Origin: an uncultured delta proteobacterium
Lineage (GTDB): Bacteria > Desulfobacterota > Binatia > UBA9968
Direction: 5' to 3'
Assembly: GCA_963804165.1 (NCBI GenBank)
Contig: CAWDPO010000045.1
Coordinates: 96,001 to 160,000, forward strand
DNA length: 64,000 nucleotides
Each line of letters opens with the position of its first letter. The stretch's first letter is position 1. Below, piece by piece: positions 1 through 12,706 of this stretch. The notes under the pieces are model-generated. The model was not told where the DNA came from. It did not search any database and was given only the letters and a program-made list of their open reading frames with translations. A program made the position numbers and the translations under genes.

Positions 1-20
1 GACACGTTCCTAGTTTGTCT

Positions 21-245
21 TCACCTTCTCGCGAGGCTCATTGGGATCTCAAGTTCGGCGATATTATTCGGATCGGGGTACTGCAGCCCATCTATGCGTT
101 CAAATCTCTTTTGTAATTCCAAGCGCAGCGTCGTCTTCCTTTGTCCATAAGCAACGATCGATTGCGGGCTGCTCGACCAGGTACGGCCTTCGTCCAAACT
201 GTAGAGTTGAACGCGCTGACCGTGGATTGCGATGTGCTTCGTCAT
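21..245 (-). CDS. Small hypothetical protein (74 aa, MTKHIAIHGQ...)
   Basis: ATG at 245 with AGGAG RBS upstream; lies downstream of sigma54 promoter 1. Confidence 0.6.
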   Translation of the reverse strand: MTKHIAIHGQRVQLYSLDEGRTWSSSPQSIVAYGQRKTTLRLELQKRFERIDGLQYPDPNNIAELEIPMSLARR

Positions 246-521
246 AAATTCTCCTAATCTCTCATCGCGGTTTGTTGCGACGTGATTTGTGCGCAAACCG
301 AGTTGCGTTACCACGTTGGCCACCCTGAGAGCTGGATCAATGAACTATCCGCCACCAGCAGCTCGGTATCGAATCCTCTGACGAAGAGGGTTCGCAGCAT
401 GCTGCTGGCAATGAACCCAACCGATTCAATTTTCGCCAAGTCCTCCAGAGCCCTTATTGTGGGCCCTTTCAGATCGGTTTGTTGTTCCGAGTGGGCAACT
501 TATCGGGCAGGCCCGCGAGCG

Positions 522-602
522 CTACCGGTGCCAACGAGAGTATCCCCAGCCCCCACCACCAATCAAAAGGAACACTAAAAGAACGATCAATAAAGTATCC
601 AT
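522..602 (-). CDS. 26-aa membrane micro-protein MDTLLIVLLVFLLIGGGGWGYSRWHR (DUF3309-like stress small protein)
   Basis: Translated by hand (below ORF-track cutoff); AGGAG RBS; hydrophobic helix plus GGGGWGY; first ORF after a sigma54 promoter. Confidence 0.7.
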   Translation of the reverse strand: MDTLLIVLLVFLLIGGGGWGYSRWHR

Positions 603-644
603 AGTCTCTCCTTTATTTGGGTTTCTATTCTCAACTCTTGTAGG

Positions 645-660
645 AGCACGTTGTGTGCCA
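645..660 (-). promoter_or_regulatory. sigma54 -24/-12 promoter 1 (TGGCACACAACGTGCT)
   Basis: GG-N10-GC spacing, TGGCAC core. Confidence 0.8.
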
Positions 661-733
661 GAACTTGTTGTTCGAAAAAGACTATAGTTTCCGACTGCTT
701 CTTTCGAGTTTTAGAGAAACAAGGATGAAAGAA

Positions 734-770
734 CCGTCGCGGCAGTCGAATCGCTCGACCAAAAGGTCGA
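734..770. promoter_or_regulatory. Putative enhancer (UAS) 1 for a sigma54 activator
   Basis: CCGTCG-N5-GTCGA-N5-TCGACCAAAAGGTCGA; recurs upstream of four sigma54 promoters. Confidence 0.7.
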
Positions 771-813
771 ATTTGATTTGATTCGCGGACGGCCGTTAAC
801 GAATCGGTGTGAT

Positions 814-1236
814 CTAATCTGGCCTGACTTCCGGGGTACCGGTGTCCAATTCGCCACGCCCCAGCGCTTCGCGTGCAGTGCGCGCGAGCTCTTCATAGCG
901 CACGCGAAACCGCTCGAGGTCTGCTTCTTCGAGCCCCTCGAGATCGAGTAAGGCATTGTGCGCGCCACTCACGGCGCGAATCAGCTCGTCGAGTTTGAGT
1001 TGGACGGCGTGGCTATCGCGGTTCTGGGTATTCTGAATCAGAAATACCATCAGGAATGTGACGATCGTCGTGCCGGTGTTGATGACCAACTGCCATGTAT
1101 CACTGAACTTGAATATCGGCCCTGTGACGCACCACATCACGACGATCAAAGCCGCAGCCATGAACGCAGCCGGATGGCCGGTGGCTCGCGCCGTCCACTT
1201 GGCGAAGCGGGAAAAAGGCGATGAAGAATAAATCAC
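814..1236 (-). CDS. Low-affinity iron permease (Fet4-like) family protein
   Basis: FSDTWQLVINTGTTIVTFLMVFLIQNTQNRD..KLDELI signature; true start may be ATG 1274 via an indel. Confidence 0.85.
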   Translation of the reverse strand: MIYSSSPFSRFAKWTARATGHPAAFMAAALIVVMWCVTGPIFKFSDTWQLVINTGTTIVTFLMVFLIQNTQNRDSHAVQLKLDELIRAVSGAHNALLDLEGLEEADLERFRVRYEELARTAREALGRGELDTGTPEVRPD

Positions 1237-1354
1237 GGTGGCATGGGCTTTCGAATTTCAGATCTGTTGTTCATTGCCGGGCGGCAGAGAGTTATTTAAA
1301 TAACGTTCCCTCTGCCACCAACCATTGTCTCTAGCCAGTCGGGAGACTCCGGGA

Positions 1355-1567
1355 CTAAAATTTGCCGGCTATAGCTTTGGCCGCAGTCACTACCGCGGCA
1401 CCGGTTTTTCGGCGCGCCTTGCCGACTTTCTCTTGAATTTTACCTGCTACGCGTTCAGCTTTGCCTTTGGCTTGCAGTCTAGGATTGCCGATCAATTTTC
1501 CGGCTTTCTCCTTAATTGCTCCCTCGATTTGTTGGCCCTTGCCTTTGATCTCAGCTTTATTCCACAT
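1355..1567 (-). CDS. csbD: CsbD family general stress protein
   Basis: MWNK..IKGK..QIEGAIKEKAGKLIGNPRLQAKG pattern; AGGAG RBS. Confidence 0.85.
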   Translation of the reverse strand: MWNKAEIKGKGQQIEGAIKEKAGKLIGNPRLQAKGKAERVAGKIQEKVGKARRKTGAAVVTAAKAIAGKF

Positions 1568-1609
1568 TCCTGTCTCCTTCCAAAGCTCAGATGACGGTCT
1601 TAAAATAAA

Positions 1610-2244
1610 TCAAAACTTTATTGGTCTTCGACTAATCGTCAGTCTTCTGTTTTCTCTCGATCTTCTCTTCTTTAGTCTCAGTGGATTTTCCCTTGCTGGC
1701 AAGTTCTGCTTTCTTGGCCTTCTTTTCTTCCTGTGATTCCTTCTGTTCCACCACAGTCTGCTTGCCGCCTTTTGTTTCACCGTTCCCCTCTGGGCCCCTG
1801 GCCAGACCCGCTCCTGGTTTTTCCTTTGGGTCAGTACCTGTTTGTCTGCCGCCTTTCCTCTCGATTGTCTCGGGAGCTTTGATCGGCGTTGCAGGGACTT
1901 GTGGACTTCTCCTCAGCCTTTGCTCTGGGGCTCTCCACTGACCAGGGAAACAAAGGGCCTTCCGCAGTCAAGCCCTGAACAGGCGCTGAATTTTGGTCCA
2001 GCCTCACCGAGGTCCCGGTGTTGAGTTGGAACTCCATCTTTCCTCCCTCCGGCACCCACAGCTCGTCCCCTTCATTCAGAAGCGTGTTTACAGCAGCAGG
2101 GACCCAGTCACCCGCCTCGGTCGTCCTCATTTGAACATCGCCTTCCAAAAAGCTGATGCGCACGGAACCGAGGTCCAATGCATGGGCGAATCTGGGCAGC
2201 AGAAGTACCGCCATCGCCCATAAAATAACTTTTACTGTCTTCAT
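1610..2244 (-). pseudogene. Internally deleted FecR-domain secreted protein
   Basis: Signal peptide plus RISFLEGDVQ..WVPAAVN..EGDELW..VRLDQN, then an abrupt switch to a K/E-rich low-complexity tail; 3' end approximate. Confidence 0.6.
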
Positions 2245-2409
2245 CTGGAGACTCCTTTTGAAATGCCGCTAAAGCACGCTGTCATCGGCTTTTGGGTTTC
2301 AGATATGTCGTTCATTGCCGGGCGGCACGGAGGTTAAAGCGAGAGCGAGACTTCTCGAAGTAACGCTACCGAGTCACTCAGCCCTGTGTCGTTATCGAAT
2401 TTTCTACAG

Positions 2410-2425
2410 AGCAGGTTGCGTGCCA
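2410..2425 (-). promoter_or_regulatory. sigma54 promoter 2 (TGGCACGCAACCTGCT)
   Basis: GG-N10-GC, TGGCACG core. Confidence 0.8.
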
Positions 2426-2497
2426 GGGCCGGAGATAGGAAATACGCTGCAATTCTCTGAGCTTGTTGTAGCGCGCCGCAGACAAACGAAAAGCGAC

Positions 2498-2536
2498 TCG
2501 TTGAATGCGTCGATGGGCGTCGACCAAAAGGTCGAC
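2498..2536. promoter_or_regulatory. Putative UAS 2
   Basis: GTCGATGGGCGTCGACCAAAAGGTCGAC; TCGACC starts 95 bp from the promoter edge. Confidence 0.7.
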
Positions 2537-2717
2537 TGAGACGGATAACTTGGAGAATTGAAAAAACCCGCCACTGCCTCAGTCGTGAATTGCTCCCCGG
2601 CGATGCATTTGTGAGCTTGCGTGGTCGGCTAGTAAGTCCCTGCCGGAATCGAGACCAAAGCACGTGGCTTGCTTCGACTCGCGGTCAAATGACGGCATGA
2701 AAAACACTGCGTTGAAG

Positions 2718-2816
2718 TTATTCGTACAGGCGCTCTAGTTCTTCTTTGTGTCGCTCTTCATCCTTAAGGATATCTTCAATTGTTTCATAAAGAATTGCGC
2801 CGTCATTTCCGACCGA
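2718..2816 (-). pseudogene. 3' remnant of the ferritin-like gene
   Basis: 2575-2816 aligns with 5750-5996 (3' end of the ferritin-like gene plus downstream DNA). Confidence 0.75.
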
Positions 2817-2901
2817 CTCTGGGATGCAGGCGAACATGAAAAGACTGCAATCCCACCAATTCCCCTAGTCGCCCAGACTCACTGCGAATTATTTTCGAAA
2901 C

Positions 2902-2917
2902 TGTCTAACATTGGACA
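2902..2917. promoter_or_regulatory. Palindromic operator copy a (TGTCTAACATTGGACA)
   Basis: Matches the repeated TGTCYAATATTRGACA motif; upstream of the Anbu operon; -10 element unclear. Confidence 0.6.
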
Positions 2918-3114
2918 GAAATTCTCCCGCGTAGCGCATTATGTAGATCAGACGATACTTGAATCCCAAGTTTCAGCTAAGAAGTAGGGTCAAATCTTTT
3001 TCTCCGACAATTGAACGCCAGTGCGTTGGGTAAAATCGAAAGTCCGCTCACAATGTCAATAGTACAACTGGCCCCTAAGTTATTCTGGTCTCGACCGATC
3101 GGAGAGAAGCAGCC

Positions 3115-3843
3115 ATGACCTACTGTGTAGGCATCATGCTCGACACCGGGCTGATTTTTGCGTCGGACTCGCGTACTCATGCCGAAGTCGACAATTTTGC
3201 GCGTTTCTGCAAGATGACCGTGTTCGAGCGCGCTGCTGACCGGGTCATCGTACTATTGAGCTCGGGCAACCTGGCCGGGACACAGGCCGTCATCAGCTTG
3301 CTGAAGCAGCGAGGGGGCGCTAAGGACGGGGTGCCCAATCTATGGAGCGCGGAGTCCATGTTCGATGCCGCGATGCTGGTGTCGGACGCAATGCGCGACG
3401 TCGATCGGCGCGACGGCGAGCACCTGGCAGAAAGTGATATCGGCTTCAACGCCTCCTTCATATTCGGCGGCCAGATTAGAGGCGAGCCGCCGCGCCTTTT
3501 CCGAATCTATGCGGAGGGCAACTTCATCGAGGCAAGCCTAGAGACGCCCTATCTCCAGACCGGTGAAACCAAATACGGGAGGCCGATCATCGATTGGGTA
3601 ATTACCCGTTCGACCTCGCTGAACGACGCGGCAAAATGTGTCCTCGTTTCGTTCGATTCGACGATGCGCAGCAATTTGTCCGTCGGCATGCCGATCGATC
3701 TGATCTGCTACGAATTGGACAGTCTTGAAGTGCGAATGCGTCGCCGCTTCGACGAGGGGGATGCGTATTTCAGCGCGCTCGGCAAACACTGGAGTGAAGG
3801 CACGCGACAGGTGTTCAGCCGACTGCCCAACCTGGACTGGTAA
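3115..3843 (+). CDS. Proteasome-type protease (Anbu, Ntn-hydrolase)
   Basis: MTYCVG (Thr nucleophile after Met removal), SDSRT, GETKYG, DSTMRSNLSVGMPIDL. Confidence 0.9.
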   Translation: MTYCVGIMLDTGLIFASDSRTHAEVDNFARFCKMTVFERAADRVIVLLSSGNLAGTQAVISLLKQRGGAKDGVPNLWSAESMFDAAMLVSDAMRDVDRRDGEHLAESDIGFNASFIFGGQIRGEPPRLFRIYAEGNFIEASLETPYLQTGETKYGRPIIDWVITRSTSLNDAAKCVLVSFDSTMRSNLSVGMPIDLICYELDSLEVRMRRRFDEGDAYFSALGKHWSEGTRQVFSRLPNLDW

Positions 3844-3854
3844 GGCCACCGAAC

Positions 3855-4631
3855 ATGCTGTCGGAGACCGCAGCGATGGATGGACGCGCAGCCGACTGTG
3901 GCGGCCTGGCTAGCGATGGCCTCGTGATCACCTGCGAGCATGGCGGCAACCGGATTCCCGCGCCGTATCGCGAGCTGTTTCACGCCCATCAGGCGCTGCT
4001 GGACTCCCACCGCGGCTACGATCCCGGCGCGCTCGTCATGGCAAGAGCGTTGGCAACGGCATTTGCAGCGCCGCTGGTGGCCTCCACCGTCAGCCGTCTG
4101 CTCGTTGATCTGAATCGATCCGTCGGCCATCCGCGTCTCCATTCCGAGGCGACGCGCAAAGTGTCTGTCGAGCTGCGTCAACGGATATTGAAGCGCTATT
4201 ACCAGCCTTATCGCGCGCAAGCCGAGCGTTTTGTCAGGCAGGCGATCACGGATCACGGCTTGGTGATCCATCTCTCTTCCCACAGCTTTACGCCCGAGTT
4301 GAACGGCAGGTTACGCGACGCCGATATCGGCCTGCTCTATGACCCGGCTCGACCGGGTGAGGCGGATCTGTGCGAGCACTGGAAGACTTCCCTCAAGACT
4401 TGTGCTCGCGATCTCACCGTCCGCCGCAATTACCCGTATGCGGGAAAAGGCGATGGCCTGACCGCCTGGTTTCGTCGGCGACTACCGCCCGGCGCCTACG
4501 TGGGCATCGAGCTGGAGATCAACCAGAAGCACGTTGTCAGAGCAAGTCGACATTGGACCGCAATGCGCAAAGTGATCGTAGAATCGCTGCGCAGGGTGCT
4601 CGCGACCCACAGTGCGAGGAATTTCGCATAG
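3855..4631 (+). CDS. N-formylglutamate amidohydrolase family protein
   Basis: TCEHGGN, HRGYDPGA, SRLLVDLNR, HSFTP, NYPY, ELEINQ. Confidence 0.85.
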   Translation: MLSETAAMDGRAADCGGLASDGLVITCEHGGNRIPAPYRELFHAHQALLDSHRGYDPGALVMARALATAFAAPLVASTVSRLLVDLNRSVGHPRLHSEATRKVSVELRQRILKRYYQPYRAQAERFVRQAITDHGLVIHLSSHSFTPELNGRLRDADIGLLYDPARPGEADLCEHWKTSLKTCARDLTVRRNYPYAGKGDGLTAWFRRRLPPGAYVGIELEINQKHVVRASRHWTAMRKVIVESLRRVLATHSARNFA

Positions 4632-4693
4632 CCGACCCCGATAACCAAGACCGCGAGCCCCGAGCTGCGCTGGCGGTCAGCAGGAGCCCGACA

Positions 4694-5503
4694 ATGAAGA
4701 TCCGCATAGGTTACGAACTGATTTACGACTGCCCGCAGCCGACCCCGATGATCCTGACCTTGAGCGTACACTACACGCGCGTCTCCGACATCATCATTCC
4801 CGATCACTTGATCTCTGATCCGCCCGTTCCGCTCACCGCCTATCGCGATAGCTTCGGCAACTGGTGCAGCCGTATCGTCGCGCCCAGGGGCCTGGTCAGG
4901 CTGTCCACCGATGCGCTCGTGAAGGATACGGGCCAGCCGGACGTGGTTGTCTCGTCAGCAATACAGACGCCGGTGGAGGAACTGCCCGACGAGACCCTGC
5001 TGTTCCTGTTGGGGAGCCGATATTGTGAGACCGATCGCCTGTCCGAGACAGCCTGGCAACTCTTCGACAAGTCACCGACCGGATGGGGCCGCGTCCAGGC
5101 GATCTGCGACCACGTCCACCGGCACATCACATTTGGCTACGATCACGCGCGCTCCACCAGGACGGCCTGGGAGGCTTTCCAAGAGAGGACCGGCGTTTGC
5201 CGTGATTACGCGCACCTCGCCATCGCCTTTTGTCGCTGCATGAACATCCCCGCCCGTTACTGCACCGGCTACCTGGGCGACATCGGCGTACCGCCGCCCT
5301 ATGGCCCGATGGATTTCGCCGCCTGGTTCGAGGCCTACCTTGACGGCCATTGGTACACCTTCGACGCCCGCAACAATACCCCGCGCATCGGACGCGTGTT
5401 GATCGCCCGCGGTCGGGACGCCGCCGACGCCGCCATCAGCAGCACCTTCGGTCCCAATACCCTGAAGAGTTTCAACATTCGGACCGATGAAGTGAGCGAA
5501 TAG
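4694..5503 (+). CDS. Transglutaminase-like protein
   Basis: ATG 4694 after AGGAG; GVCRDYAH catalytic Cys, DFAAWFE, FDARNN. Confidence 0.9.
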   Translation: MKIRIGYELIYDCPQPTPMILTLSVHYTRVSDIIIPDHLISDPPVPLTAYRDSFGNWCSRIVAPRGLVRLSTDALVKDTGQPDVVVSSAIQTPVEELPDETLLFLLGSRYCETDRLSETAWQLFDKSPTGWGRVQAICDHVHRHITFGYDHARSTRTAWEAFQERTGVCRDYAHLAIAFCRCMNIPARYCTGYLGDIGVPPPYGPMDFAAWFEAYLDGHWYTFDARNNTPRIGRVLIARGRDAADAAISSTFGPNTLKSFNIRTDEVSE

Positions 5504-5897
5504 TGAACCGGCTGAGGATCGGTAGGGCGATTACGCGTAAAGCGCAAACCGCCGCGCTTCGTGAATGGTATCAGGCTTGAGAGAGTGGTGTGTCCAGATG
5601 AATTGGGCCCCTCTTATCGTGGCGAGAGAAGTCTCACAGCGGTAACGCCGGCTTGAGTAGAGCAGCAAGAGCAATCGACATCCTGAATGCCAACAAAGCA
5701 AAGTCAGCGCAGGCCAACCAAGATCCGCACCAGACTCGCGCGCGCACGTTGCCTCAGTCGTGAATTGCTCCCCCGGCGATGCACGCCGTGAGCCTTGCGT
5801 GATCGGTCAGTAAGTCCCATCCGGATCGAGATCAAAGCAGGCGCGGGGCCTGCTTTGACTCGCATCAAGTGACGGGACGAAAAACACCGCGTTGAAG

Positions 5898-6317
5898 TTA
5901 TTCTTGTAAGCGCTGTAATTCTTCTTTGTGTTGCTGTTCATCTTTAACGATATCTTCAATGGTTTCGTAAAGAATTGCGCCGTCATTTCCGACCGAATCA
6001 AGTATCGACCGGTACATTTTAATAGCTGCTTCTTCCTCGGCGATGTTCACCCGCAGAATATCTTTCAAGGTCGTGGCCGGAATGAGATCTTTGGTGGCAA
6101 TCTCCATCGTCGGAGTTCCGGCTAAGGCCGTGATTCGGTCGCGCAGCTGAGCCGCATGAGTCTTTTCGTCTTCGGCTATTTCCTTGAGTCGAGTAGACAC
6201 CGCTTCCGCATAAGGCCCGGTGATAACCGCTGCATGGGTAAGATAACGAATCTGACATGCGTGCTCCTGAGCTAGAGCGTCATTAAGCATTTTGAGTATC
6301 TTGTCTTGGTTTTCCAT
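5898..6317 (-). CDS. Ferritin/bacterioferritin-like diiron protein
   Basis: EH..Y..H, EDEKTH, EEEA, DEQQH four-helix ligand pattern. Confidence 0.85.
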   Translation of the reverse strand: MENQDKILKMLNDALAQEHACQIRYLTHAAVITGPYAEAVSTRLKEIAEDEKTHAAQLRDRITALAGTPTMEIATKDLIPATTLKDILRVNIAEEEAAIKMYRSILDSVGNDGAILYETIEDIVKDEQQHKEELQRLQE

Positions 6318-6501
6318 TTTAGAGTATTTCCCCTTGTCCGATTAGAACTCGCACTTCTCACAATCCTTGTCGCCGATGGCCAAGCCGAAGTCACCGCTAG
6401 AAACGGTAACGAATTCTCCGGCGGGCGGCAGACAGTCGACTAAAAATTGTTTCCTCGCCGCCACCGGAGAAACCAGGCAAAGCCGTCGCAAGAATCGTTA
6501 A

Positions 6502-6714
6502 CTAAAGTTTGCCGGCAATCGCCTTGCCGACCTTCTGCACCGCTTCAGCGGTTTTTCGGCGCGCTTTTCCGCCCTTCTCCTGAATTTTACCTGCTACGCG
6601 TTCAGCCTCGCCTTTGGCTTCGAGTTTGGGATCCTTGATCAATTCCCCAGTCTTGTCCTTGATCGCGCCGGAAATTTGTTTGCCCTTACCTTTGATCTCG
6701 TCTTTGTTCCACAT
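6502..6714 (-). CDS. csbD: CsbD family protein, second copy
   Basis: Paralog of 1355-1567; AGGAG RBS. Confidence 0.85.
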   Translation of the reverse strand: MWNKDEIKGKGKQISGAIKDKTGELIKDPKLEAKGEAERVAGKIQEKGGKARRKTAEAVQKVGKAIAGKL

Positions 6715-6902
6715 ACCTGTCTCCTTTTAAGTGTTTGGATCCTTACGCAAGGATCGGGTTGTTAAGTACCGATTAAACTTTCCAAACCTCAGTCGGGCTA
6801 AATCAAATTGCTTAGATGCTGGGTCATTTTTTCGTTTCTCGGTTCTAACCGAGCGAGGACGGAAGGGAGCGTGCGCTAATTCGCGATGTGCGAACTGTTC
6901 AG

Positions 6903-7085
6903 TCATCGAGTCGAAGAGCTGTACAAGAATAGGCGACAACCGACAGTGGCGCCAACAATTCCCAGTATGATCTCAAGCGCGCTAGGGTCGGCCCCTAAGA
7001 TCTGCGCGTATTGATGCTGTCCTGCCACGTTTCCTATCGACCAACCGACAAGTCCGATCAGTAAAAGCCAAATGATTGCGTACAT
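6903..7085 (-). CDS. GlsB/YeaQ/YmgE-like stress membrane protein (possibly degenerate)
   Basis: MYAIIWLLLIGLVGW...IILGIVGATVG; GAGG RBS; first gene after sigma54 promoter 3. Confidence 0.55.
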   Translation of the reverse strand: MYAIIWLLLIGLVGWSIGNVAGQHQYAQILGADPSALEIILGIVGATVGCRLFLYSSSTR

Positions 7086-7131
7086 GAAACCTCTCCGTCT
7101 TTGCAGTCGCAAAACTAGCAACGCTTTAATG

Positions 7132-7147
7132 AGCAACTTATATGCCG
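7132..7147 (-). promoter_or_regulatory. sigma54 promoter 3 (CGGCATATAAGTTGCT)
   Basis: GG-N10-GC, TTGC at -12. Confidence 0.8.
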
Positions 7148-7219
7148 TACCGTCTCGTCGGGGAAAGACCGAATTTGCCTATGGATTTCTTAAGGTCGAA
7201 AAATAAAATCATTGAAGCC

Positions 7220-7256
7220 TCGTCGAGAGCGTCGAGACCTTTCGACCAAAGAGTCG
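7220..7256. promoter_or_regulatory. Putative UAS 3
   Basis: TCGTCGAGAGCGTCGAGACCTTTCGACCAAAGAGTCG; TCGACC starts 95 bp from the promoter edge. Confidence 0.7.
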
Positions 7257-7282
7257 GGTCGCTCGAGGCGTTTTTCGGTTTC

Positions 7283-7576
7283 CTAATAAACTGGCGTGCG
7301 GTATTGGCCTAGACTCATCATGAGCAGAAACACCAACTTCAATCGCTTCACTTCAACCTCGTCAGTCGGACCGGCGCGAAGCAGTCTTTTTTCGTTGCGA
7401 AGATTCTTTTCGGCGAGCGCGTTGACCTGCTGTGCGGTGCCATGTTTGTACCCGGGTCGCGCATCAAGGTGCTCTCTGGGAGCGCCGGAGGCAGCTTCTT
7501 TAGAAGATGCAACCCGTCCGTCCGCATTGAGACCAAGAGCCATCATGAGAACTGACAGCAACATTAATTTTTTCAT
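7283..7576 (-). CDS. Secreted hypothetical protein
   Basis: N-terminal signal peptide MKKLMLLSVLMMALG; has its own operator-type promoter. Confidence 0.6.
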   Translation of the reverse strand: MKKLMLLSVLMMALGLNADGRVASSKEAASGAPREHLDARPGYKHGTAQQVNALAEKNLRNEKRLLRAGPTDEVEVKRLKLVFLLMMSLGQYRTPVY

Positions 7577-7677
7577 CGCGTCATCCTTCGTTGGGAGTGA
7601 CTAGCGTTTGAGCCAAGGTGCTTTGCACATTTTCAAGTAACCCGCGCGGCTGAAACTTAATGGTTTTAATGGAAGGA

Positions 7678-7720
7678 AGCTTAGGTCGGCTCAAAAGGGG
7701 GCGCAGTCCAATATTAGACA
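7678..7720 (-). promoter_or_regulatory. Operator copy b plus -10 TAAGCT (class II-type promoter)
   Basis: TGTCTAATATTGGACT-N21-TAAGCT. Confidence 0.75.
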
Positions 7721-7888
7721 ATTTTGCAAGGAATTATCCCACGCCGCCTTCATGCCGAAATCAAGTGTCGCTGAGTCACATACGCCAAAAGCAGAGCTTA
7801 AGTTATTTGTCCTCACCGGCATCGGCCACCGCGGAGCGATTCAAGGGCAGGACAAACGGGAGGAGCTTAGGGACGCTTGCGGAAGATC

Positions 7889-8119
7889 CTAACTGCAATG
7901 ATGGATCGTCAACGCGAGCGCTTCTCCGATTGTGTTGCGTCGGGATGGGTCGTCGAGCCACTCATCGGGGATTGAAACCTCCCCCATTTTTTTCTCCTTA
8001 GGATTGAATACGAGGCAGCTTTCAGGATTTAACTTATTCGGCTCGATCACATACCAGCCGGAATACCCGTACTCGGTTAGAACGCTCTGGAGGATGTCCC
8101 GCTTCTTCAATGTTTCCAT
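7889..8119 (-). CDS. Hypothetical protein (76 aa)
   Basis: AGGAG RBS; downstream of operator copy c. Confidence 0.6.
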   Translation of the reverse strand: METLKKRDILQSVLTEYGYSGWYVIEPNKLNPESCLVFNPKEKKMGEVSIPDEWLDDPSRRNTIGEALALTIHHCS

Positions 8120-8291
8120 AAACTCTCCTTGCTTTAGCCGCGAGTTACCGTGACGGCCTATGATGGCGATTCTCTATGGGCATCGTGGAGCTTTTCTCGG
8201 CGCCGTGGTTGCCATACCGATCATTGCTCCCAGTAAAATCCAAACTGTGGCGGCACAGGTACTATTCCCTTCTATTGGGTGAATTGCTCTA

Positions 8292-8333
8292 ACGATAGGC
8301 CGGCTAGGAAAGATTGCTGTCCAATATTGGACA
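8292..8333 (-). promoter_or_regulatory. Operator copy c (perfect palindrome) plus -10 TATCGT
   Basis: TGTCCAATATTGGACA-N20-TATCGT. Confidence 0.7.
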
Positions 8334-8387
8334 GTCTCGCAAAGACTTATCACAAGGCCAGGGAAGGGAGAGCCGCCCGAGACGATT

Positions 8388-10808
8388 CTACGGCCGTTCT
8401 TGAATCGCCTCACCATGATGCGTGTAGCGCACTGAAAGCGGCGCGTGCGGATTTGAAGGGTTAAGTGCAGTTAAGGATTCGCCCTTCGCGATCGAGCCGC
8501 CTGCGAGATAAGCATTGATGTTTCTTTCCATTTGCGCCGGAAACTCCGGCGCGGGGCCTACCAGCTTTTCGCGGTACACTCGGAGCATGAGTTCTTTGAA
8601 CACCGGCAGCGCTAGCCTGCCGCCGGTTTCTCGGGGTCCGAGGGAACGGTTGTCGTCGAAGCCTACACGGACGGCGACGGTGATTCCTTCGGGACCGTAA
8701 GTCGAGCCGACAAAGAGCGCGTCTCTGAACTCGTTTGTCGTCCCTGTCTTGCCCATAACCGCGATCGGGAAAAAGCCAGAGTCAAGTGTATGAGCCGAGC
8801 CGGTGGGAATACGCACGACACCACGCAGGCCTTCCTGAATGAGCGCGAGTGCGGAGTCGTTGACATCGATCGTATGCCGCTCTCTCTCGTTATCAGCCGC
8901 AACCTCACCCGTACCGCGGACGATTTTGCGGATCAGATACGGCTCTGCGAGGATACCCGACGCCATGGTGCGGTAGGCATTGGCCAGCTCAAGCAAATTC
9001 ACTTCGGACGCGCCCAACGCCGTCGTGGCATAGGGCTGCAATCGCGTCTTAACCCCTAGACTCCGCGACGTTCCCAGGACGCTGTCAATCCCAATCTGCC
9101 CTGTAAGCCAAATCGCTACGGTGTTTCTGGATTCCGCGAGCGCCTCACGGACCGGGATCATGCCTCGGAATTGTTCATCATAGTTTGAGATCCACTTCGT
9201 ACTTAGTTTCTCTGCATCCGGAACACCGATGGGTTCGTCGGGAACCACGGTCTCAAGATTAAAAGTTCCCTGCCGAAAAGCAGCGAGGTAGGCAAACGGT
9301 TTCATTGTCGACCCGGGTTGCCGCAGGGACTTGGTGACGCGGTTAAAGTCGCTGTATACGGCGGAGCGGTCCTGGTAAAATTGACGACCGCCCGTCTCGG
9401 CGAGGATGCTCGCGTCGCGGTTTCTCAACACGACGACAGAACCTTGGATTATCCCTTTGGCACTCGGGTGTCGTTTCTCGTAAAACTCGAGGCCGCGCTC
9501 CAGCGCCTCGTTGGCAATTTGCTGCACCCGGAGATCCACCGTCGAGTAAACCTGGATGCGTCCCTGCAAAAGATCGTTAACGCTGAAGTCGCCACGGCCT
9601 TTGAGCGCCTGCAGGATAGCTCCGAAGACCGCGGGCGCTTGAAGCATCTTGTCTTTGCGTCGCGCGATCGCTTGAAGCGGCCGCTGCTCGGCTGAATTCA
9701 CAATGTCCCGGGAAATGAAACCGTTTGCCGCCATCAGCGCCAGAGTTTGGTTTCTGCGGCGCAACACCCTTGAGGTGTCCTTCGCATTGGGGGCGTAGTC
9801 GCGCGGCGACTTCGCGATGCCTGCGAGCAGCGCTGCCTTGTCGGCGTCATCGGCGTTGAACGTGGCGAGAGACCGGCCAAAATAGTATTCCGCCGCCGTG
9901 GCAAACCCGTACCGGCTGTTTCCCATGTAAATGAAGCTGGCGTAGCGGGCCAGAATTTCTTGCTTAGCGCTGCGTTTCGAACCGAAACGCTTCTGCATCT
10001 CTCTTTCGATCCACAACGACAGGCGAATCTCCTCCACCTTGCGACCTAACATGTTGACGGTCCGCGCGCCGATCAGGGTAGACAGCGTGCGAGGGAAGAT
10101 TCCGGCAGACAGGAGCTGGTTGCTGTTTTCTTTCGCCGTTAAGTTTTTGAGAAAATGACCCCGAACGAGCTGTTGAGTGATCGTCGATCCGCCTTGCGGG
10201 AGAAACGCCGGACTCTCAACTTCGTCTTGCGCTCCGAGTCCTATGAGGCGTGCCCCCAGAGCCCGAATCCTGACTTTGCTCAGCACGCGAGGAATTACCG
10301 AATAGTCAACGCCGCTATGAGAGAAGAAGCGTTTGTCTTCGGTCGCGATGATGGCATCACGAACAATCGGCGGGATGTCCGTATACTTGGTGATCTTCCG
10401 ATACTCTTTTGCCGTTTCAATGAGCGGCTGGCCGCCGGCATCATAGACGGTGCCGATGGTAGGAAACTCAAAGCGGGCGAAGGCTTCTATGTCAGGCAAG
10501 TCACGTCGGTCAAAATAGACGTGATAAAATCCAATTGATACGACAGCGGCTAAAATCGGCGTCGTGCAAACTACAAGGTTAAAAACGCTTTTCTGCCAAT
10601 GTCGTTTGGCGAAGCGGCTACTGAAGATTCTCCGAGCCTCCCCCGGAGCACTCACGCGCATACGTCTGAGCCAGTCCCAGCGAGTCTGTGGATCGGGCGC
10701 CGGCAAAATCTTTCGCGCGCCGCCGGCCGCGGTGGAAGCTATGACCCCTAAGCCCACCAGTCCGGCGGTTAGAGCAATGAGAAGAAACATCAGCGACCAA
10801 TACAACAT
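8388..10808 (-). CDS. Class A penicillin-binding protein with DUF1328-like N-terminus
   Basis: EDKRFFSH, GGSTITQQL, RK..E (transglycosylase); STMK, SRN, KTGT (transpeptidase); start uncertain. Confidence 0.85.
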   Translation of the reverse strand: MLYWSLMFLLIALTAGLVGLGVIASTAAGGARKILPAPDPQTRWDWLRRMRVSAPGEARRIFSSRFAKRHWQKSVFNLVVCTTPILAAVVSIGFYHVYFDRRDLPDIEAFARFEFPTIGTVYDAGGQPLIETAKEYRKITKYTDIPPIVRDAIIATEDKRFFSHSGVDYSVIPRVLSKVRIRALGARLIGLGAQDEVESPAFLPQGGSTITQQLVRGHFLKNLTAKENSNQLLSAGIFPRTLSTLIGARTVNMLGRKVEEIRLSLWIEREMQKRFGSKRSAKQEILARYASFIYMGNSRYGFATAAEYYFGRSLATFNADDADKAALLAGIAKSPRDYAPNAKDTSRVLRRRNQTLALMAANGFISRDIVNSAEQRPLQAIARRKDKMLQAPAVFGAILQALKGRGDFSVNDLLQGRIQVYSTVDLRVQQIANEALERGLEFYEKRHPSAKGIIQGSVVVLRNRDASILAETGGRQFYQDRSAVYSDFNRVTKSLRQPGSTMKPFAYLAAFRQGTFNLETVVPDEPIGVPDAEKLSTKWISNYDEQFRGMIPVREALAESRNTVAIWLTGQIGIDSVLGTSRSLGVKTRLQPYATTALGASEVNLLELANAYRTMASGILAEPYLIRKIVRGTGEVAADNERERHTIDVNDSALALIQEGLRGVVRIPTGSAHTLDSGFFPIAVMGKTGTTNEFRDALFVGSTYGPEGITVAVRVGFDDNRSLGPRETGGRLALPVFKELMLRVYREKLVGPAPEFPAQMERNINAYLAGGSIAKGESLTALNPSNPHAPLSVRYTHHGEAIQERP

Positions 10809-10908
10809 AGCCTGTACTCTATGATCTCTGATTATCTGTCGCAGTTCAGTTAGCCTGGAAACCCATCGGGACTCGTCTTCGCCGCGACTACACCCCGTTC
10901 GGGCCGAG

Positions 10909-11106
10909 TTAAGACAACTTCCCCACATGGATCGCGGAGAGCGAGCTGATAAGTCCAAAAACATTCAGCAGCCACAGAACTACGCCGATGACCACGACCC
11001 CATTCAGGATCGACTTGATAGATCCTGCCATCGGTATGTAGCGATTAACGAGCCCGAGCAGAACACCGATTACGATCAAGATCACTACGAGTTGAACTAA
11101 AGGCAT
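10909..11106 (-). CDS. Thivi_2564 family membrane protein
   Basis: LIVIGVLL.LVNRYIPMAGSIKSILN.VVVI.VVLWLL. Confidence 0.8.
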   Translation of the reverse strand: MPLVQLVVILIVIGVLLGLVNRYIPMAGSIKSILNGVVVIGVVLWLLNVFGLISSLSAIHVGKLS

Positions 11107-11162
11107 AAACCACCCCCTATGTCCGGACCAGCGGCTTTAGGGCTGTTCCCGGTTATGTATTG

Positions 11163-11288
11163 TTAGTGAGCCGATTTGCGGTTCAACCTCATCGCCGCGG
11201 TAATCAACCGACGATCGGCCATGAGGCCGAGTGATAATGCGCCCGTCTGCAGCAAAATCATGATGACGACTAAAATGGTTGCGAGCAT
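11163..11288 (-). pseudogene. Degenerate DUF3309-like small protein
   Basis: MLATILVVIMILLQTGAL, then TRPHGRS..DYRG in a shifted frame, resembling the family's LGALPTWPHSRSWGY; RBS present. Confidence 0.5.
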
Positions 11289-11324
11289 ACCGCTTCCCCG
11301 TAAAGACTTTAGAAGCTAAGTGTG

Positions 11325-11340
11325 CGCAAGCCTCGTGCCG
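11325..11340 (-). promoter_or_regulatory. sigma54 promoter 4 (CGGCACGAGGCTTGCG)
   Basis: GG-N10-GC, GGCACG and TTGC. Confidence 0.8.
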
Positions 11341-11414
11341 CAACTCTTTTTGAGGGAAAGGCTAAATGTTCCGATAGATTTCCTAAGCAGTCAGGATAAG
11401 CAACTCGAGAAAGC

Positions 11415-11450
11415 TCGTCGGTAGCGTCGAGACTTTCGACCAAACGGTCG
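11415..11450. promoter_or_regulatory. Putative UAS 4
   Basis: TCGTCGGTAGCGTCGAGACTTTCGACCAAACGGTCG; TCGACC starts 96 bp from the promoter edge. Confidence 0.7.
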
Positions 11451-11710
11451 TGTTAGACTAGGCCGAGGGCGCGGTGAGGCAATGTTGGTACGGCGTCAAT
11501 AACAACCATGGTGTATTCTTGAATCCATTCCTATCCTATAGCGTTGCCGCAAAAATGAGACATTCACGAAGCGAAAAAGGAGAGGGGATGGATGTTTCTC
11601 CCGCTCTGTGTGTGAACTCGATTCGCAGATTTTCAAAAAAGGAACTGGCATATCTTCAAGGCCGAAGGGAGGTTTTAATTTACCAGCATCTCCTTACCAC
11701 TGTTTGATCG

Positions 11711-12706
11711 CTAGCTCTTCTTCGCTATTAAAATCGAATCAGGATCAAAAGGAAGCGGGCTGCTACGGAAGGGGCCTCTTATACGTGAGAACCCGGCTTG
11801 GCGCAGCCATCCGAGAATCTCGTCCGAAGCGTAACAACGTCCTTGGGGCGTGTGCAAAAAAAGCGAAACGGAAAAGAGCGTCCCCCACTCGGGCGCGGTC
11901 CTATCCCGACTCATGAAAACATCGCGCAGGATCAAATGCCCCCGAGGGTTCAGACAGCGATGGAGTTGAGCAAGTAGGGAGCGATTTTCAGCGACCCCAT
12001 GGGCGTGTAAGACATTGGAGACAAATACCGTATCGAATCCTCGTGGCAGAGCATCCCGTGAAAAATCCCGTCCGATGAGCCGCACTCTTTTCGCCATGCC
12101 CGAGTCCCCGACAGCCCGACGCGCCAGAGGAAGAATATTAGGATGCTCAACAAGAGTTGCGCGAATGCGCGGATAACGACGACAAAAAGCTGCGGCAAAG
12201 CTTCCAAGCCCGCCGCCGACATCCAGCAGAGTCCGGCAGCTGATCAGGGGTAATTTCTCGATCAGATAGGGCGCGATCTGCTGCGCATGGAGATCCAGAG
12301 CGCAAAGTAAGCGCTTAGCCTGGGCGCGATCCGAGATGAAAGGTTTCTGGGTCCTTGGTCTATTTCCGGTTATGAGGTTGGAAGCGAGCCCACTCCAACT
12401 GTTCCAAGCGTCATAATTGGGCAGCAGCAAAGTTGCTCCGGCCCCACTAAGATGACGCGAAGAAAAAGGGGAGTTGCTAAATTTTGCTCCGCGTTTCCGC
12501 ATCAAGCCCATACCGCAGAGCGCATTGAGAAACATCTCCCACCCCACCGCATGGCCACCAAAATGAGCCGCCAGCGCTCGTGGACTTTTTTCCAGCTTGC
12601 CCATCCAACCGAACAAATCCAGATGGGCCGCGGTGATAAGAATGCACGAACGCCAATAGCTGCTTTCGCCTCGAAGTCTTTCAAGATTCCATTTTTTACT
12701 CGCCAT
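11711..12706 (-). CDS. SAM-dependent O-methyltransferase (dimerisation domain plus Methyltransf_2)
   Basis: LLDVGGGLG motif I, SNVLH. Confidence 0.85.
   Translation of the reverse strand: MASKKWNLERLRGESSYWRSCILITAAHLDLFGWMGKLEKSPRALAAHFGGHAVGWEMFLNALCGMGLMRKRGAKFSNSPFSSRHLSGAGATLLLPNYDAWNSWSGLASNLITGNRPRTQKPFISDRAQAKRLLCALDLHAQQIAPYLIEKLPLISCRTLLDVGGGLGSFAAAFCRRYPRIRATLVEHPNILPLARRAVGDSGMAKRVRLIGRDFSRDALPRGFDTVFVSNVLHAHGVAENRSLLAQLHRCLNPRGHLILRDVFMSRDRTAPEWGTLFSVSLFLHTPQGRCYASDEILGWLRQAGFSRIRGPFRSSPLPFDPDSILIAKKS

Follow-up and report, generated by a model that had tools for sequence, protein, structure and literature searches.

An island-limited sigma-54 regulon, probably an envelope-stress loop with captured general-stress genes, in an uncultured Binatia genome

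We analysed a 64,000-nucleotide stretch from an uncultured delta proteobacterium of the class Binatia (the window; positions 96001-160000 of contig C45 in genome G000, which is 7.5 Mb long and 81% complete), in which four sigma-54-type promoters are each preceded, at an almost constant distance, by a shared TCGAC-rich enhancer. These copies belong to a set of eight confined to one gene island, and they probably mark a real, island-limited sigma-54 regulon, an envelope-stress loop with captured general-stress genes, and not a lineage-wide master switch. From sequence comparisons, we consider it likely that a response regulator encoded at C45:79722-81143, about 15 kb to the left of the window, uses the element as its upstream activating sequence, and that this loop captured the general-stress genes of the island and operates beside other sigma-54 activators.

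Architecture and conservation of the enhancer

The four window promoters have the -24/-12 form GG-N10-GC and lie on the minus strand at 645-660 (TGGCACACAACGTGCT), 2410-2425 (TGGCACGCAACCTGCT), 7132-7147 (CGGCATATAAGTTGCT) and 11325-11340 (CGGCACGAGGCTTGCG), with predicted starts near 634, 2399, 7121 and 11314, respectively. An earlier note, made from the letters of this DNA, had placed them there, and its degenerate upstream element fits all four window copies; TCGAC begins 95, 95, 95 and 96 bp from the promoter edge in copies 1-4, as it claimed, and the palindrome TCGACC-AAAA-GGTCGA is present in copies 1 and 2. The shared TCGAC-rich enhancer of that note does exist, but it is not a single block. 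It consists of two separate 16-bp dyads of the type TCGAC-N6-GTCGA, with centres 21-22 bp apart: the distal one is near-perfect (TCGACC-N4-GGTCGA), the proximal one is degenerate (TCGAC-N6-GACGA, read on the promoter strand), and the 5 or 6 bp between them put their centres two helical turns apart. The distal and proximal dyads, none of which is assigned a strand, are found at 755..770 (perfect) and 734..749 (degenerate, 5-bp gap) in copy 1, at 2520..2535 (perfect) and 2498..2513 (6-bp gap) in copy 2, at 7242..7257 and 7220..7235 (6-bp gap) in copy 3, and at 11436..11451 and 11415..11430 (5-bp gap) in copy 4. Their centres lie about 108 and 129 bp upstream of the predicted start and the dyads span about 100-136 bp upstream; the available sections of PMC4987338 give 80-150 bp as the normal distance of enhancers from sigma-54 promoters.

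Taken by itself, the promoter pattern is no more frequent in the window than expected by chance (at 2 mismatches, 67 matches versus 65 in shuffles), so that the case rests on the composite of enhancer and promoter. The sequence TTTGGTCGA-N5/6-TCGAC occurs eight times in the 7.5-Mb genome, versus 0.6 expected if the two halves were independent. All eight occurrences share the minus strand of C45 and fall within 24 kb (84,050-107,450), four in the window and four additional ones to its left, the latter being independent of the motif definition. Each of the eight has GGCA-N7-TGC 101-104 bp downstream, a pattern with a frequency of 8.6e-5 per position. In the matrix scan of the genome that the earlier note had proposed, the copies reach leave-one-out scores of 31-44 bits, versus a best of 24-27 elsewhere, and a genome-wide matrix search for weaker copies gave nothing above 25 bits with a promoter.

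Conservation was assessed on 95 sites from all loci, 68 after removal of near-copies. Most dyad and -24/-12 columns of these 68 sites, whose invariant columns are partly set by the search pattern, carry 1.4-2 bits, versus 0.1-0.9 bit in the spacer, so that the cassette is not uniformly conserved: enhancer and promoter stand out. On average, the distal dyad deviates from the dyad consensus at 0.4 positions and the proximal one at 1.5, both in core sites (38) and in the others (57). Within the spacer, A is enriched at about 40 and 29 bp and T at about 18 bp from the promoter, peaks that follow one another at about 10-11 bp; the genome encodes three HU/IHF-family genes. The proximal dyad is mostly 86-90 bp from the promoter (85-90 outside variants), with a variant at 77. 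Within one sister family (f3; the other sister family is f2, and f1 is the window's own) the distances are 68, 79-81 and 90, steps of about one helical turn that represent few events.

A candidate activator and its distribution

Sigma-54 itself is encoded in this genome (rpoN, PF04552 on contig C38, E 5e-62), which also has activator-domain matches at 34 places, 28 of them at full length (about 28-29). The earlier note had supposed an activator encoded outside the window, and our candidate, the response regulator at C45:79722-81143, agrees with this. It combines a receiver, an AAA+ domain with GAFTGA and a Fis-type helix-turn-helix; its best NCBIfam matches are AtoC, ZraR and NtrC, all below their cut-offs (443 of 760 for ZraR). 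The association of the enhancer with an NtrC-family gene, which the earlier note had suggested looking for, is direct: the last copy and its promoter head the operon that encodes, in this order, a secreted accessory protein with an OmpA domain (C45:83007-83909), a membrane sensor kinase with a periplasmic Cache-like match below cut-off (C45:81116-82873) and the regulator. By its layout, this operon appears to be autoregulated through its own enhancer.

In island-bearing genomes the accessory protein is joined by a collagen-like linker to the OmpA domain. We found no Pfam family for the Gly/Met-rich secreted protein that takes its place in single-copy loci. The C-terminal domain of this protein was modelled with a pLDDT of 74-94 over residues 61-130, as a helix and four strands. 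The model is nearest to the C-terminal domain of YpeB, CD1622 and YpmB (Z 7.3-8.0, rmsd 2.7-2.9 Å over 63-69 residues), which we take to be PepSY folds, and its match to an Atlas PepSY cluster is only 0.78.

Relatives were searched at several levels: 60 genomes with a strict pattern, the enhancer double dyad (61 for the reversed-pattern control), 30 of the genus for the same pattern, a class sample of 300 genomes with a looser pattern (49 in the same order, 251 outside it), a phylum sample of 50 genomes for sensor homologues, and a species-level scan (one genome per species) for enhancer plus promoter, which gave 67 stretches, mostly labelled Candidatus Binatia or uncultured delta proteobacterium. 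Counts are given raw, since relatives share kinship and are not independent. The strict pattern was found in 19/60 relatives (reversed control, 0/61) and the N-terminal region of the sensor in 41/60. Sixteen of the 19 pattern-positive genomes have a sensor orthologue, and 16 of the 19 sensor-negative genomes lack the pattern. We then examined 20 of the 46 sensor matches, picked by protein where the strict pattern had failed; ten of them come from the 19 in family f3. Of these loci, 18 have the two dyads upstream together with a sigma-54 promoter, 15 by matrix, two with a 4-bp gap and one by eye with one mismatch; of the other two, one has only the proximal dyad and one is a paralogue behind a multicopper oxidase, with neither site nor accessory gene.

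The association extends to distant genomes. Two loci from genomes of 41-42% GC that were found by the DNA pattern alone (L044 and L099) have a near-perfect double dyad followed by different downstream genes, with a kinase and a regulator divergent beside the motif; the best match of these regulators in our genome is C45:79722-81143 (54-55% identity, 498-506 bits, versus 367 to the next activator). One of the 50 phylum genomes (G350, another class) encodes a sensor homologue; the accessory gene and helix there are similar, and a related dyad is followed after 68 bp by a sigma-54-like promoter. The regulators of these loci group in a single clade (support 99/92). Its sister is E. coli ZraR (91/94) in a tree of 27 rows, 18 long or redundant ones having been excluded; a faster tree did not resolve the sister. 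The recognition-helix region S/T-E-R-x-L-R-Y-K is present in 13 of 14 aligned orthologues (the exception, L119, has SARGLRYK) and in 0 of the 27 other activators of this genome aligned alongside. As judged from these comparisons, the motif accompanies the regulator clade in three families and in two distant lineages, and by co-occurrence C45:79722-81143 is the likely cognate activator of the dyads.

In the class sample, the looser pattern was found in 19/49 genomes of the same order and in 2/251 others, and the matches in G216 and G316, from another family, appear to be chance matches in coding sequence. Two loci labelled Pyrinomonadaceae (L041 and L097) also have the island cassette. Their DNA is 87-94% identical to that of Binatia-type loci, which may reflect misbinning or transfer to Acidobacteria, and they were not counted as range. 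In G014 and G015 the whole system is present a second time, with a short accessory protein and a variant site (L108 and L107).

The system would operate as follows. An envelope cue would switch on the kinase, and the phosphorylated regulator would bind as two dimers on one helix face, at the tandem dyads, and then oligomerise; the DNA would loop over the A/T-tract-phased spacer and the sigma-54 complex would be opened. The regulator would thereby amplify its own operon, as positive feedback, and activate seven other units, among which a Crp-like regulator may run a second tier.

Genes behind the enhancer copies and growth of the island

All eight copies point toward downstream genes and none lacks a promoter in this genome. 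The seven units other than the regulator's own operon comprise about 30 genes, including those for CsbD, BON, entericidin, DUF3309, ferritin-like, dodecin, superoxide dismutase, penicillin-binding and Crp-like proteins. In the window, all downstream genes of the four promoters lie on the minus strand. Unit 1 starts with a 26-aa DUF3309-like membrane protein (522..602; E 4.5e-5, over cut-off), followed by a 74-aa protein of no known family (21..245) that recurs behind enhancer copies in relatives. Downstream of promoter 2 are the N-terminal remnant of a secreted FecR-like protein (1831..2244, E 0.027; its tail is at 1632-1754, and the protein has 750 aa in locus L041), a CsbD-like protein (1355..1567) and a Fet4-like low-affinity iron permease family protein (814..1236). 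Promoter 3 is followed by a 60-aa small membrane protein with no Pfam family (6903..7085), a second CsbD-like protein (6502..6714) and a ferritin-like protein (5898..6317). Promoter 4 precedes a 41-aa hydrophobic open reading frame (ORF) with no family match (11163..11288), a Thivi_2564 family membrane protein (10909..11106; NF041949, over cut-off) and an 806-aa class A penicillin-binding protein with transglycosylase and transpeptidase domains (8388..10808), a layout that recurs in L050. The gene labels of the earlier note hold for both CsbD proteins and for the Fet4-like, ferritin-like, Thivi_2564 and DUF3309-like (26 aa) ones. Its DUF1328-like label corresponds to a match below cut-off (E 1.8e-4) in the N-terminal segment of the penicillin-binding protein, and no Pfam match at E 0.1 was found for its GlsB/YeaQ-like protein.

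The copy at C45:88797 heads a DUF3309 gene and the gene of a Crp-like regulator. A second palindrome, GTCYA-N4-TRGAC, is found at 2903..2916 (no strand), with further window copies at 7706, 8319, 17925 and 20894. It occurs 32 times in the genome (other spacers give 8-15), with 10 copies in C45:68,700-116,900 (68706-116894) and 22 outside C45, and often precedes an A-rich stretch. We regard it as a candidate site of the Crp-like regulators encoded at C45:68766 and 87682.

Two further observations concern neighbouring genes. A 389-aa secreted protein with a long Gln/Lys-rich region, a Tyr/Arg-rich tail and no family (C45:89177-90346) is also found behind an enhancer copy in L033. On the plus strand, a three-gene unit (3115-5503) encodes a 242-aa protein without family, which has no more than a resemblance to the proteasome-like Anbu, an N-formylglutamate amidohydrolase family protein and a transglutaminase-like protein. 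This unit sits between two copies of the ferritin 3' end, with the second palindrome ahead of it.

RNA data spoke neither for nor against this picture. Twelve runs contain at most 8% of the words. In four runs analysed as contigs, which give no starts, strand or level and to which conserved genes recruit best, sequences of relatives cover the downstream genes, with zero depth in bins 2401-2800 and 7601-8000, and two contigs cross promoter 1.

The gene content behind the enhancer differs between families. Families f2 and f3, like several f1 genomes, have a single copy. It heads a gene order of secreted Gly/Met-rich protein and/or DegP-type protease, sensor and regulator. At least two copies are found in 10/60 relatives and in G274, all of family f1 and mostly clustered on one contig. 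In a survey for which 203 ORFs from 80 sites were clustered and representatives scanned, the genes behind multiple copies encode entericidin, CsbD, BON, DUF3309, dodecin, ferritin-like, Ku, M48 peptidase, glycine-zipper and Crp-like proteins, in shuffled order. We infer that the ancestral system was a small autoregulated envelope-stress loop, formed by a PepSY-like protein and/or DegP, the sensor and the regulator, and that an enhancer-promoter cassette of about 130 bp was copied before general-stress genes in one family. Duplication scars in the window (1229-1291/2270-2332, 1338-1579/6485-6726 and 2575-2819/5750-5999; 77% in the CsbD region and 87% at the ferritin end), together with the deleted FecR-like gene, point to an island under active rearrangement. 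Its GC content is 0.52-0.56 versus 0.558, and no tRNA was found at the island, so that neither supports its mobility.

A cascade from RpoN to a second sigma factor, as in Borrelia, was considered and is not supported. An RpoD-like paralogue directly follows the regulator in all five family f3 loci (L142-L146), where it has, by eye, its own sigma-70-like promoter; it is not adjacent to the regulator in the other families, and the two paralogues of our genome have no sigma-54 promoter. The RpoD-like paralogues, of about 500-530 aa (in our genome at C40:211413-212966 and C16:5803-7392), are candidates for a stationary-phase sigma factor.

Alternative readings, known systems and the wiring of stress genes

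Several observations weigh against reading the element as the activating sequence of this regulator in a loop that captured stress genes. Three sensor-negative genomes carry the pattern: in G031 the regulator orthologue is present (81%), in G045 the site precedes an accessory gene on a short contig, and in G003 (88% complete, with the sites near a contig end) no regulator orthologue was found, the best match being 46%. The paralogue at L106 retains a near-identical recognition helix but has no local site. The links between motif and regulator are all comparative, the fold match of the accessory protein is middling (best Z 8.0), and the nature of the signal is a guess from the DegP and PepSY-like neighbours. 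Several units look decayed (the FecR remnant, a ferritin fragment at 2718-2837 and the 41-aa ORF), so that some enhancer copies need not be active, and the cassette tree (133 columns) is too short to give the order of events or to derive the island copies from the core copy.

The same activator and mechanism could serve a narrow envelope- or metal-specific response, for which "general stress" would be a mere label taken from gene names. The PepSY-like protein and the sensor would then answer a single cue, either misfolded envelope protein or a metal. This alternative, which we regard as rather unlikely, draws on the core operon of a PepSY-like protein and/or DegP, sensor and regulator, on the paralogue behind a multicopper oxidase, and on the many lipoproteins and small membrane proteins among the targets; according to the part of PMC9988556 available, PepSY proteins of other bacteria bind metals. 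As described in the accessible text of PMC4987338 and PMC4641369, ZraSR-ZraP of E. coli and Salmonella and DVU3381-3384 of Desulfovibrio vulgaris likewise combine a sigma-54 response regulator, a membrane kinase and a small periplasmic accessory protein in an autoregulated response to envelope stress. Our regulator is 47% identical to ZraR, its nearest named relative in the 27-row tree (48% to AtoC), and the divergent layout of ZraSR-ZraP recurs in L044 and L099. The resemblance does not extend to every component. The sensor domain does not align with that of ZraS, BLASTP covering only the kinase core (residues 344-575, 41% over 232 aa; 256 of 479 for the NCBIfam ZraS family), and the accessory protein has no BLASTP match to ZraP at E 10, is not of the ZraP/CpxP/Spy kind and is PepSY-like in its predicted model. 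The E. coli zraP-zraS interval has no TCGAC, and the sites of DVU3381 differ from this enhancer. The sizes differ as well, with about 30 genes here versus the three or four direct targets of E. coli ZraR given in the available part of PMC7657598; the small number also speaks for a narrow response. Against it stand the non-envelope and cytoplasmic targets that are typical of general stress, namely CsbD, ferritin-like proteins, dodecin, superoxide dismutase, Ku and the Crp-like regulator.

The earlier note had suggested that this lineage may run its general stress response through sigma-54 and an activator. Sigma-54, a shared enhancer and stress-type targets are indeed present, but a lineage-wide role of this enhancer is not borne out: all eight copies lie in one island, the strict pattern is found in 13/30 genomes of the genus, and two sister families have a single autoregulatory site. 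A master switch of this kind is therefore quite improbable in our view. In its favour, no RpoS, SigB/F/G or NepR was found over cut-off in 5/5 genomes (TIGR02394, TIGR02980 and PF18557; our genome is 81% complete and the others 98-99%), with controls matching as expected, and the Crp-like regulator with its 22 candidate sites outside C45 could spread control indirectly. Against it, RpoD-like paralogues and ECF sigma factors are present in the genome as alternative candidates, the multi-copy state is restricted to one family, and near-complete relatives lack both sensor and motif (G007, 98%; G008, 99%). In the window positions 1-12000, one sigma-70-like site was found, versus 5.7 in shuffles.

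The wider use of sigma-54 in this genome bears on the same question. With a crude gene caller, 117 sigma-54-like promoters were found 30-130 nt before called genes, versus 6-13 for wrong spacers and 14 antisense, and only those of the island have the enhancer. At 161 non-island sigma-54 promoters we found no positional enrichment of TCGAC or of another dyad (best P 3e-4, with many tests). Among 61 first genes from 20 promoter-dense regions, 13 belong to families that we take to be stress-type (PRC, Usp, Hsp20, CBS/YflT, BON, CsbD, S30AE, PsiE and Fet4-like), 26 have no family, and none has this enhancer. Of the six CsbD genes over cut-off, two are in the island and four are elsewhere and without the enhancer; two of these four have a sigma-54 promoter directly upstream, and two are behind PRC-barrel genes having one. 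Since many other stress-type genes have sigma-54 promoters without it, this enhancer is not a lineage-wide master switch. The promoter counts support the idea that sigma-54 widely serves stress-type genes here, probably through several activators, of which this enhancer would represent one branch. Genome-wide, about 110 sigma-54-like promoters are above background; they are dense on C40 and C43 and many precede small or stress-type genes. We also noticed small helix-turn-helix-17 (excisionase-like) regulators behind sigma-54-like promoters at C2:12797, C2:61863, C16:13998 and C16:78380, one of them confirmed by Pfam.

That the dyads are bound by another protein, either a Crp/Fnr-like regulator or another of the roughly 29 activators, seems very improbable. 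The 5-6-5 geometry of the dyads resembles that of Crp sites and 10 of the 203 ORFs downstream of the motif are Crp-like genes, yet in 5/5 motif-bearing genomes without the island the Crp-like query had no match at E 1e-10, in a search without a positive control of its own (the same query matches G274 at 82%). Moreover, the ZraR-related clade adjoins the motif even in distant genomes, and the Crp-like protein has the separate palindrome available. Least credible of all is a passive origin of the copies, by recent duplication or from a small mobile repeat, mostly without regulatory function: the scars exist and the eight spacers resemble one another more than shuffles do (45% vs 33%), but at 35-57% they indicate a shared ancestry that is old, the dyads and promoter are nearly invariant, every copy faces genes and has its promoter, and most island copies have their nearest counterpart in another genome (up to 77-93%) and not in the island, so that recent duplication alone is unlikely.

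Taking the element, then, as the activating sequence of an envelope-stress loop, its targets can be set beside other regulons. RpoS and SigB control target families that overlap those of the island. The RpoS, SigB and EcfG regulons share with it CsbD, entericidin, BON/OsmY-like, Ku and ferritin-like families, and the available part of PMC7083833 lists csbD, ecnAB and ku-ligD in the EcfG regulon of Sphingopyxis. They differ from it in that here -24/-12 promoters with an enhancer are found in one island only, patchily distributed in the genus. In Myxococcus xanthus, an activator with two upstream sites drives the sigma-54 promoter of a Crp-family regulator (MrpA/MrpB/MrpC; PMC10701913, as far as available), an arrangement that our sequence resembles, although the outputs here are small stress proteins and not development. 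Tandem palindromic enhancers of the NtrC/AtoC type are similar in having two dyads upstream of -24/-12 and a Fis-type helix-turn-helix. Two possible precedents were set aside: in the accessible text of PMC4371752, no phenotype is given for Ralstonia rpoN2 and stress is never mentioned, and that of PMC13207237 ties Bradyrhizobium RpoNp to stress genes, not to csbD or "general stress". GGTCGA is absent from the five supplementary files that accompany the sigma-54 study of D. vulgaris (PMC4641369), TCGAC-N6-GTCGA is not in the consensus column for Salmonella in the available part of PMC4987338, and neither csbD nor Binatia is mentioned in that of PMC12316311. In literature searches, which leave subscription journals mostly uncovered, we found no description of this site or system; supplements of papers on ZraR, MrpB and sigma-54 regulons might hold the motif.

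The known general stress responses belong to a few sigma-factor systems, and well-studied bacteria use a dedicated stress sigma factor. Control by sigma-54, an enhancer and a two-component activator is in itself a textbook mechanism. It is possible, though doubtful, that we are looking at a fourth wiring of the general stress response, one without RpoS, SigB or EcfG, in which an envelope two-component loop was promoted by copying a 130-bp cassette before survival genes, with a Crp-like second tier, and whose steps of one, few and eight copies are visible across genomes. The analysis names a specific candidate activator, its site and its targets for the control of stress genes in abundant uncultured lineages such as Candidatus Binatia. 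These are small enough for a rebuild in E. coli, so that sigma-54 control of CsbD/BON/entericidin-type genes becomes directly testable. From one autoregulatory site in sister families to between two and eight in one family, the genomes would also offer a graded natural series of regulon growth.

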